Assembly (NCBI GenBank): GCA_951406725.2
Contig: OX597843.1
Span: 7,998,001-8,062,000, forward strand
Direction of reading: 5' to 3'
DNA length: 64,000 nt
DNA from: Octopus vulgaris
Lineage: Eukaryota
A model generated the notes under the pieces. That model was not told where the DNA came from, ran no database searches, and was given only the letters and a program-made list of their open reading frames with translations. The position numbers and the translations under genes were made by a program. Shown in pieces: positions 27,494 to 39,469 of the stretch (position 1 is its first letter; each line of letters starts with the position of its first letter).

Positions 27494-27917
27494 TTTTTTT
27501 ATCTAGTTTCAGCTTACAAGCTGTGGCCATGCTGGGGCACCGCCATTTGGTGTTGCTACATGATTTTACTTCACGAATGCTTTTTGCAATTGCCATTTGG
27601 TGCATGAGAGAGTTCGATGCAGCTGCCCTCATCTGCACCTCCTGCTGTGAAGTTGGTTCATCTGGGACACCTGACAGGAAGAGATCCAGTTTTATTTTAA
27701 AGACATCTCCATCAACCCCACGCAATTCCCTCAGGTTCTTCGGGAGGATATTGAAGAGCTGTGGGCCTTGAAAGCCCAGGCTATCACAGTATCTTGTCCT
27801 ACATCTTGATGGCAAGTTTGGAGTCCTTGGCACTGTGCAGTGGGGCCCAGTTCTGGCATTTGTGTAACTCTCGATGCCAAAGTTTGGGACAAGTCCTTCT
27901 ATGATCTTCCAGATGTA
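27494..27917 (-). mobile_element. 5'-truncated CR1-like non-LTR retrotransposon (ORF2 C-terminus and 3' end)
   Basis: YIWKIIEGLVPNFG...GPQLFNILPKNLR...FKIKLDLFLSGVPDEP, which resembles C-terminal motifs of CR1-group ORF2; ends GGCGGTGCCCCAGCATGGCCACAGCTTGTAAGCTGAAACTAGATAAAAAAA. Clade assignment is from memory. Confidence 0.8.
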
Positions 27918-28213
27918 AGATATGAAAGGTTTATTCCACTTTGAACGCTTAAACCCAAATCAAACAATAATAAAGATCTACCAGGAGCAGCTTAAGTCAG
28001 CGCTAGAAGAAGAACGGCCATCTTTGGTCAGAACAGTACTGGACGAGTATTTTTCGTCACGGACAAATCTATCTTGGAAGTGGGACCTTGCAAGTCTACC
28101 AGATAGATGGAAGAGCATTATAGAAAATGAAGGATTGGATATTTTAGATTAAAAAAGAACTTTGTTTATCTTAATTTTGAAAAATAAAAGAAATAGAAAT
28201 ATCGAAATATATA

Positions 28214-28388
28214 TGCAGGAGTGGCTGTGTGGTAAGTAGCTTGCTAACCAACCACATGGTTCCGGGTTCAGTCCCACTGTGTGGAATCTTGGGCAAGTGT
28301 CTTCTGCTATAGCCCCGGGCCGACCAATGCCTTGTGAGTGGATTTGGTAGACGGAAACTGAAAGAAGCCTGTCGTATATATGTATATA

Positions 28389-38977: not shown

Positions 38978-39469
38978 AATTTATCGAACCCGAAAGGATG
39001 AAAGGCAAAGTCGACCTCGGCGGAATTTGAACTCAGTACGTAACGGCTGACGAAATACCTATTTCTTTACTATCCACAAGGGGCTAAACACAGAGGGGAC
39101 AAACAAGTACAGACAAAGGGATTAAGTCGATTATATCGACCCCAGTGCGTAACTGGTACTTATTTAATCGACCTCGAAAGGATGAAAGGCAAAGTCGACC
39201 TCGGCGGAATTTGAACTCAGAACGTAACGGCAGACGAAATACCTATTTCTTTACTACCCACAAGGGGCTAAACACAGAGGGGACAAACAAGCACGGACAA
39301 AGGGATTAAGTCGATTACATCAACCCCAGTGCGTAACTGGTATTTAATTTATCGACCCCGAAAGGATGAAAGGCAAAGTCGATCTTGGCGGAATTTGAAC
39401 TCAGAACGTAACGACAGGCAAAATACGGCTACGCATTTAGCCCCGCGTGCTAACGTTTCTGCCAGCTCG
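38978..39469 (-). mobile_element. SINE B, head plus ~2.5 tandem bodies
   Basis: Junctions at ~39060 and ~39244. Confidence 0.9.

Follow-up and report, generated by a model that had tools for sequence, protein, structure and literature searches.

The tail that ends a long interspersed nuclear element (LINE) in a 64,000-nucleotide (nt) stretch of the Octopus vulgaris genome (assembly GCA_951406725.2, contig OX597843.1, positions 7,998,001 to 8,062,000; hereafter the window) is common to at least five LINE families and two short interspersed nuclear elements (SINEs), SINE A and SINE B. Of the LINE copies sampled, about half are tail-only, ending at the 5' base of the first of two hairpins, stem-loop 1 (SL1). 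We consider it fairly likely that the LINE enzyme grips the shared tail, most likely at SL1, and that it jumps at the 5' base of this hairpin to other RNAs, thus giving new SINEs their tails. The window LINE (27494..27917, minus strand) is a 5'-truncated copy of the CGTG-type subfamily of a family we call LA, comprising the end of open reading frame 2 (ORF2), a short 3' untranslated region, the tail and an A-rich end. An earlier note on the window had proposed that this LINE mobilises SINE A through a 14-nt hairpin, on the model of the eel pair UnaL2/UnaSINE1, in which, as Kajikawa and Okada reportedly showed in 2002, the LINE mobilises the SINE through a shared 3' stem-loop.

The tails of the window LINE, SINE A and SINE B each fold as SL1 and an adjacent second hairpin, SL2. 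In the window LINE, SL1 (27524..27545, minus strand) consists of 4 base pairs (bp), a G.G mismatch, 4 bp and a YCCA loop, and its 5' base is the breakpoint hotspot; SL2 (27510..27523, minus strand) is the 14-nt hairpin of the earlier note, where it was called fully paired, and actually has 5 bp and a 4-nt loop. SL1, which lies upstream of SL2 and had gone unmentioned in the earlier note, is nearly invariant across all families and more conserved than SL2, whose stem covaries between families and whose loop is free: on a fixed stem, LA alone has at least five SL2 loop forms (CGTG/TGTG, CATA, CATG, CATT and CAAG). The hairpin had been said to differ in the window LINE, SINE A and SINE B. Its sequence does, but the window LINE and SINE B have an identical SL2 stem, with only their loops unlike, and the other stem is confined to SINE A, which leaves one covariation contrast and not three. 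The SL1 of SINE A differs from that of LA in one loop base and the basal pair. In the zebrafish L2 elements tested, specificity lies in the loop, and stems can be swapped whereas loops cannot (PMC4176376, sections 13 and 19); the eel tail requires a bulge and a mismatch (cited part of PMC1636434). By analogy with these tails, its near-constant loop and mismatch make SL1 the likelier candidate for the specific recognition signal, with SL2 as a putative structural element. SL2, to which the earlier note had assigned recognition, is unlikely to be the specific signal, because its loop varies within LA, and it is the loop that confers specificity in the zebrafish elements.

The LINE families that end in this tail are LA, LB, LC, LE and LF. 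LB (SL2 stem CAGTC/GACTG) has about 60% amino acid identity to LA, LE has the SL2 stem CAGCC/GGCTG, and LF, with copies up to 99.9% identical, has about 75% amino acid identity to LA. LF (L370-L399) is the youngest LINE family seen, with a cUUCGg SL2 loop and an SL1 stem one pair longer. In a quick tree that has SH-aLRT support only and lacks LF, LA1-4 group together (support 98) and LB groups with LE (95). Exact tails number 9,906 for LA and 92 for LB in the searched genome of 2.8 Gb, LA thus being about 100 times commoner. That the window element is a LINE, as had been supposed, is borne out by LA copies with a reverse transcriptase (RT; PF00078) and full-length copies with endonuclease and RT. 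LA is about 4.5 kb long, with an ORF1 of 302 amino acids and an ORF2 with endonuclease and RT (matches to PF14529, PF03372 and PF00078) in which RNase H was not matched. Among 20 ORF1-bearing LA copies, the best non-self of 874 candidates, the tail terminates 14, in keeping with the expectation that this is where full-length copies finish; another 5 break off or are interrupted before it in the sequence that was fetched, and the remaining copy lacks a motif match. Both ORFs are open in 3 of the 20, the intact copies L189, L195 and L202, with an ORF1 of 302 and an ORF2 of 1037-1039 amino acids, open from stop to stop.

Truncation within these families is concentrated at one place. The breakpoint was measured as the reach of LINE homology 5' of loop 1 in copies picked by pattern. 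For LA, 65 copies were taken from contig C1 (the first 30 matches less 5 with a CAAG loop, and the next 40 without one), and 38 of them break within 12 nt of loop 1, 27 at 10-12 nt; of the remainder, none breaks at 13-20 nt, one at 21-40 nt and 10 at 41-599 nt, and in 16 the homology reaches 600 nt or more. A constant truncation rate fitted to the longer copies would predict about 1%. Nine LA breaks fall within the 5' arm of SL1. LF behaves likewise, with 15 of 30 copies broken within 12 nt (one of them, L390, a complex site) and none at 14-160 nt, and in LB the count is 10 of 30, or 8 true truncations once a SINE A chimera and an internally deleted copy are set aside. For SINE A, no copy in 30 is tail-only; among the 92 tails of SINE A type gathered from every fetched locus, 9 score as short, and inspection by eye shows 7 of those to be older forms that have a different linker.

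Irrespective of the surrounding sequence, homology ends some 2-3 nt 5' of the SL1 stem, with a blur of a few bases where the flanks are AT-rich. Microhomology with AT-rich targets is argued against as the cause of the hotspot, because the position is the same across the differing sequences of LA, LF and SINE A, and the A-rich tracts upstream in LA are unused. An assembly artefact is unlikely, since loose ends at the boundary are also present in three other public runs. Nor are the tail-only copies one family of their own: their flanks differ, and each carries the loop and repeat of its own subfamily. The exceptions to the differing flanks are a U6 pair, one inverted pair, and copies whose hosts are SINE A copies.

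Other RNAs are joined to the tail at this very point. Full-length U6 stands on the tail-only copies L210 and L224 (RF00026 model positions 1-105; 106.9 and 99 bits), and in L269 an intron-bearing, unspliced pre-tRNA with an oligo-T trailer is joined to the tail at the breakpoint; Rfam found an RNA partner in 3 of 5 candidates tested among 44 tail-only insertions. The bodies of SINE A and SINE B meet the tail at the same point as U6 and the pre-tRNA. Seen from the side of the small RNA, the 30 U6 3' ends examined out of 181 comprise 21 chimeras, 7 members of a gene array and 2 unassigned cases. Eleven of the chimeras are with tail-only pieces (4 LA, 1 LC, 3 LF and 3 SINE A), 8 are with the 5' end of a whole SINE and 2 with another U6; among the 30, there is no U6 join elsewhere within LA or LB. 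Genome-wide, an 11-mer from the U6 end precedes the hairpin at 1-10 nt in 61 places and at 11-40 nt in 6 (five barely past the limit, one with a long T run), with none in the controls; these 67 places were counted by pattern rather than confirmed one by one as U6.

Some features of the small RNA sequences themselves may be added here. Many U6/tail joins have CT directly after the T run, as is found downstream of U6 gene terminators, and may represent read-through U6 RNA. Seven U6 genes stand in tandem at a spacing of about 1.1 kb (L341-L347; G000:C1:139.42-139.43 Mb). Partial tRNA-like sequences, which Rfam and ARAGORN did not confirm, lie upstream of tail-only pieces in L108 (1400-1500, with an oligo-T trailer) and L288.

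SINE B (54369..54597, plus strand) is a very young tail-swap chimera. It joins 161 nt of head and body from an older SINE to a tail of the LA2 subfamily at a junction near 54529/54530, with SL1 at 54532-54553 and SL2 at 54554-54567 (plus strand). Copies of the parent family lie in the window on the minus strand at 19128..19413, with the same head and body and another tail, and at about 40363-40629. The alignment of SINE B to its parent stops at the junction, where loose ends in contigs of three public runs continue into the body of the parent. Twenty of the 40 matches listed, the window copy included, are 100% identical, all of 222 nt and in different contigs and flanks, and the median divergence is 0.3% (n=22). 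The LA2 and SINE B tails agree at 43 of 43 nt, which makes the lineage of the window LINE, through its subfamily LA2, the exact donor of the SINE B tail; SINE B would then ride LA2. Thirty of the 975 exact CAAG tails were read, giving 22 SINE B, 2 LA2 LINEs and 6 tail-only copies, the last, by eye, mostly with the terminal repeat of the LINE; the exact LINE leader with the SINE B tail occurs in 22 copies. The surroundings of SINE B are themselves repetitive: it lies within a long inverted repeat resembling a miniature inverted-repeat transposable element (window 54180-54680), with a short duplicated stretch at the 5' junction, and another copy of the inverted-repeat arm is at about 54000-54120.

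We propose the following course of events. The ORF2 protein would bind SL1 and would need SL2 merely as a stem. Copying would start on the structured tail by target-primed reverse transcription, which is established in analogous systems, and would then encounter the physical end of an RNA, 2-3 nt 5' of SL1. There it would either stop or jump, end to end, to the oligo-U 3' terminus of an RNA polymerase III (Pol III) transcript; end-to-end jumping is a property of the R2 RT. Because U6 also joins the 5' ends of whole SINEs and other U6, the enzyme appears to jump on reaching an RNA end, and the joins at the base of SL1 therefore point to an RNA end there. Its favoured source would be LINE mRNA decayed in the 5'-to-3' direction and halting at the ORF2-covered SL1, because LINE transcripts, and not SINE transcripts, give many tail-only copies. 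XRN1 needs a few unpaired bases. We tentatively go one step further: these LINEs might release the stretch of tail covered by ORF2 as a discrete RNA of about 55-60 nt, which would be reverse-transcribed in about half of the insertions and would serve as a universal adaptor onto U6, pre-tRNAs and SINE RNAs. If this is true, one fixed breakpoint would explain tail-only micro-insertions, small-RNA chimeras, SINE birth and tail swapping, and the shared SL1 would let one SINE ride successive LINE families.

The covariation of the tail, which the earlier note had expected across families, holds in a set of 12 hand-picked family representatives: 98.1% of cells are paired, against 21-44% in slid controls; three pairs, two in SL2 and one in SL1, are changed on both sides; and none of 500 shuffles reaches the covariation score. 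Several points nevertheless weigh against the proposed recognition and jumping. First, the number of pairs with a change on both sides is reached by 69 of 500 shuffles and that of further pair types by 499 of 500, two of the five covariation measures thus being no better than shuffles, and the covariation comes down to about three change events among related rows, few of them independent. Folding of the tails relative to shuffles is modest (z of -1.5 for the window LINE, -1.9 for SINE B and -3.0 for SINE A), the basal pair of SL1 is mismatched in SINE A, and the near-invariance of SL1 is a sign of constraint, not of pairing. Second, the LA breakpoint sample comes from one contig, omits CAAG-loop matches and counts the inverted pair L219/L220 twice. 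Third, three U6 chimeras carry tail-only SINE A, so that the breakpoint is not limited to LINE mRNA, and a decay model restricted to Pol II transcripts is therefore weakened. Fourth, no short tail RNA was seen.

The hotspot may instead arise from an intrinsic stop or release of the RT after it has unwound the element to which it is bound, or from refolding of a cDNA hairpin, with no trimmed RNA involved; we give this a little less than an even chance, and, given the three U6 joins to tail-only SINE A, hold it nearly as likely as mRNA trimming. Such a stop fits a break position set by structure rather than sequence, the nine LA breaks inside the 5' arm, and the tail-only SINE A pieces found in 3 of 10 U6/SINE A joins. 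However, SINE RNAs have the same structure and are seldom tail-only (for SINE A, none of the 30 and, by eye, at most 2 of the 92), the CAAG tail belongs to whole SINE B far more often than to tail-only copies, most of which have the LINE's own repeat, and the cases of U6 attached to the 5' end of a whole SINE or to a second U6 show that joining takes place at physical RNA ends.

SINE A is exemplified by 15252..15655 (plus strand; tail from 15602, SL2 at 15623-15636), and exact tails of its type number 95,410 genome-wide. A 21-nt core with at most 4 mismatches occurs at 10 places in the window, which are 8 SINE A copies, 1 SINE B (54533) and 1 LINE. The reported match between the LINE end, the SINE A tail and the tail at 54533 was found where it had been placed, and is above chance: the LINE fragment aligns locally to SINE A and SINE B with scores of 45 and 78, against a best of 27 and 29 in 300 shuffles, none of which reaches the real scores. 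As for the proposed partnership, the window LINE does share a structured 3' tail with SINE A, but with 31 of 43 nt identical, against 38 of 43 for LB; its identity to SINE B is 38 of 43. The stem, the loop-1 T, AAACA and an AAAAGA-type terminal repeat are all LB-type in SINE A, whose tail is of the type closest to LB, suggesting that it derives from the LB/LE lineage. Against this stand the lack of any exact match to a LINE with SINE A's exact loop (LB/LE leader plus SINE A loop), the lack of ORF2 upstream of all 92 SINE-A-type tails from the fetched loci, and the scarcity of LB, whose 92 exact tails compare with 95,410 for the SINE.

SINE A was probably moved by more than one LINE family, because SL1 is common to all of them. 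By divergence, SINE A comprises a younger group (4.6%, n=45) and an older one (8.3%, n=38), 21 copies being left unassigned; LB stands at 6.1% (n=18) and the CGTG subfamily of LA at 3.9% (n=7). LA may have moved the younger wave, because the two are of similar age and LA is so much commoner than LB. Age as a pointer to the mover was otherwise abandoned: family-level values had favoured LB, and splitting SINE A in two erased the distinction. Hybrids (one SINE A body with an LA tail, L364, and one real case with an LB tail among 5 matches) are too few to weigh.

It is rather unlikely that LA is the working partner of SINE A with SL2 as the signal. The abundance of LA, the matching ages of its CGTG subfamily and the younger SINE A group, an SL1 that differs by just one loop base and the basal pair, and the hybrid L364 would suit such a partnership; the LB-type stem, loop-1 T, AAACA and terminal repeat, an older SINE A group that predates the sampled LA subfamilies, and an SL2 loop that varies within LA speak against it. 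Improbable, in our view, is a LINE family that has so far escaped notice and carries the exact tail of SINE A. Its existence is made conceivable by the exact partner of SINE B; further families (LE and LF) kept emerging with wider sampling, and one at a few percent of the 95,410 matches could escape; yet the zero count for the LB/LE leader with the SINE A loop and the 92 tails without ORF2 speak against it, as do 14 AAAT-loop loci, none of which is a LINE. Least probable of all is a route in which RtcB ligates U6 to a piece of cleaved LINE RNA ahead of reverse transcription, as in human U6/L1, where RtcB joins U6 to L1 RNA (cited part of PMC6789731), for although nothing separates the tail from a full-length U6 that retains its oligo-U end, 10 of the 21 chimeras place U6 on a whole-SINE 5' end or another U6, where the 5'-OH needed for ligation would not be expected, and most tail-only insertions are without such an RNA partner.

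The SINE heads show A- and B-box-like motifs by eye; ARAGORN found no genes, and no tRNA is among the 150 of 271 Rfam rows listed. SINE A may resemble OR2. Ohshima and Okada are said to have described the octopus SINEs OR1, OR2 and OK in 1994; their heads are tRNA-like, as those of the SINEs here may be. These three are cited as CORE-SINEs in parts of PMC4758252 and PMC4824008, and motif searches for SINEs of the OR1/OR2/OK type in supplement files of two papers were negative. SINE A heads (the first ~183 nt) are stacked in tandem ahead of a full copy (14870-15052, 15061-15243 and from 15252), with similar stacks at 28217/28478 and 35332/35555, apparently broken at an internal (TA)n tract. A third SINE on the minus strand (about 16129-16156, 16299-16326, 39245-39272 and 61772-61799) has a body that, by eye, is like SINE A up to the tail boundary, and its different tail also terminates an ORF1-bearing element in L063.

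LA probably belongs to the CR1 clade. Its layout of two ORFs with an APE-type endonuclease and RT and without RNase H fits CR1 without being diagnostic, since L2 and related clades have it as well; a short tandem-repeat 3' end and the absence of a target-site duplication (one insertion) also fit CR1, and its C-terminal motifs look CR1-like. Among recently active LINE groups of O. vulgaris, CR1 is present and L2 absent in Table 1 of PMC13282606. Homologue searches and cluster look-ups gave no clade name for LA, a search of the PDB returned R2 and L1 only (E about 1e-7 to 1e-5), and motif comparison with a gastropod RT supplement was uninformative on the clade. The closest named homologues of the LA proteins are from Argonauta hians (63-64%). 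LA is covered by three public runs, whose RNA nature is only a guess. The ORF1 at L189:707-1612 has a CCCH zinc finger below threshold and a faint N-terminal Myb/SANT-like match; the term CCCH does not occur in the cited part of the ORF1 survey PMC4120745. ORFs adjoining LINE copies in the upstream flanks of L149, L185 and L146 are ones we take to be Penelope-like (RT, GIY-YIG-like end) or RTE-like.

The window LINE is 94-96% identical to its best 39 other genomic matches and has lost its usual ORF2 stop through a 1-nt loss. The tail terminates all 19 of the other top copies; the TGTA loop of the window copy is private decay, because none of the 19 carries it. The copy sits in a mariner transposase remnant on the plus strand, with a left part at 26985..27486 (recognised by translation; PF01359 weak, E 0.02, below cut-off) and a right part at 27918..28180. 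Compared with the uninterrupted relative L401, this single insertion deleted about 16 bp of host sequence without a target-site duplication. The mariner 5' part is locally duplicated at 26531-26814 and an AT-rich neighbouring segment at 25500-25620/26183-26400, both with (TA)n tracts between. An Rfam scan of the window gave, among the 150 of 271 rows listed, sub-threshold, microsatellite-driven microRNA matches only.

The gain or swap of a SINE tail is usually ascribed to template switching, and direct traces are few. In this genome the intermediates can be seen, all at a single nucleotide position. There are copies reduced to the tail, chimeras with U6 and with a pre-tRNA, and a near-identical young SINE accompanied by its parent and its tail-donor subfamily. 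The breakpoint may thus map the RNA footprint of the enzyme in vivo, and candidate partners are named for a very abundant SINE. Thousands of insertions of about 60 bp are implied by extrapolation from the sampled fraction, which repeat annotation could miss or count as SINE fragments. The intact LINE copies are usable for an assay.

Neither an octopus LINE/SINE pair nor a truncation hotspot at a hairpin base appears in the literature searched, and the word octopus does not occur in the main text of PMC3747384; Repbase, Dfam and some classic papers may hold them. The pairing of a SINE with a LINE is by itself ordinary, as shared tails are already known. The eel UnaL2/UnaSINE1 and zebrafish ZfL2-1/ZfL2-2 elements likewise have a shared structured 3' tail, a mismatched stem and a terminal tandem repeat (cited parts of PMC1636434 and PMC4176376); the octopus tail differs in having two tandem hairpins, known here from sequence alone. 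In addition, its SL1 is common to LINE families with ORF2 identities of about 60-75%, whereas the loops of ZfL2-1 and ZfL2-2 are exclusive according to the relevant sections of PMC4176376. Among molluscs, the tail of the bivalve CR1-14_CGi is shared with the BivaV-SINE2, BivaCORE-SINE1 and Vhc_1 SINEs (cited parts of PMC4824008 and PMC4758252), and as here a mollusc LINE tail stands on SINEs with compensatory stem changes, the tails being compared by description only. The lineage is different, and the octopus genome retains a recent tail swap alongside the subfamily that donated the tail, with joins that fall at a measurable hotspot. The 3' end of U6 on the 3' part of a LINE or SINE recalls U6/L1 in mammals, U6/L2 and U6/Mon-1 in platypus, and U6/L2, U6/RTE and U6/SINE in Anolis (cited parts of PMC4476161 and PMC6789731); the platypus U6/L2 chimeras have short L2 parts, and template switching has been proposed there for SINE tail gain (PMC4476161, same part). 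In contrast to the octopus, the cited parts of these texts describe neither a single fixed joint at the foot of a recognition hairpin nor a tail-only class that makes up about half of the copies. What sets the octopus case apart is a fixed breakpoint tying together the copies reduced to the tail, the chimeras with small RNAs and a recent exchange of SINE tails.
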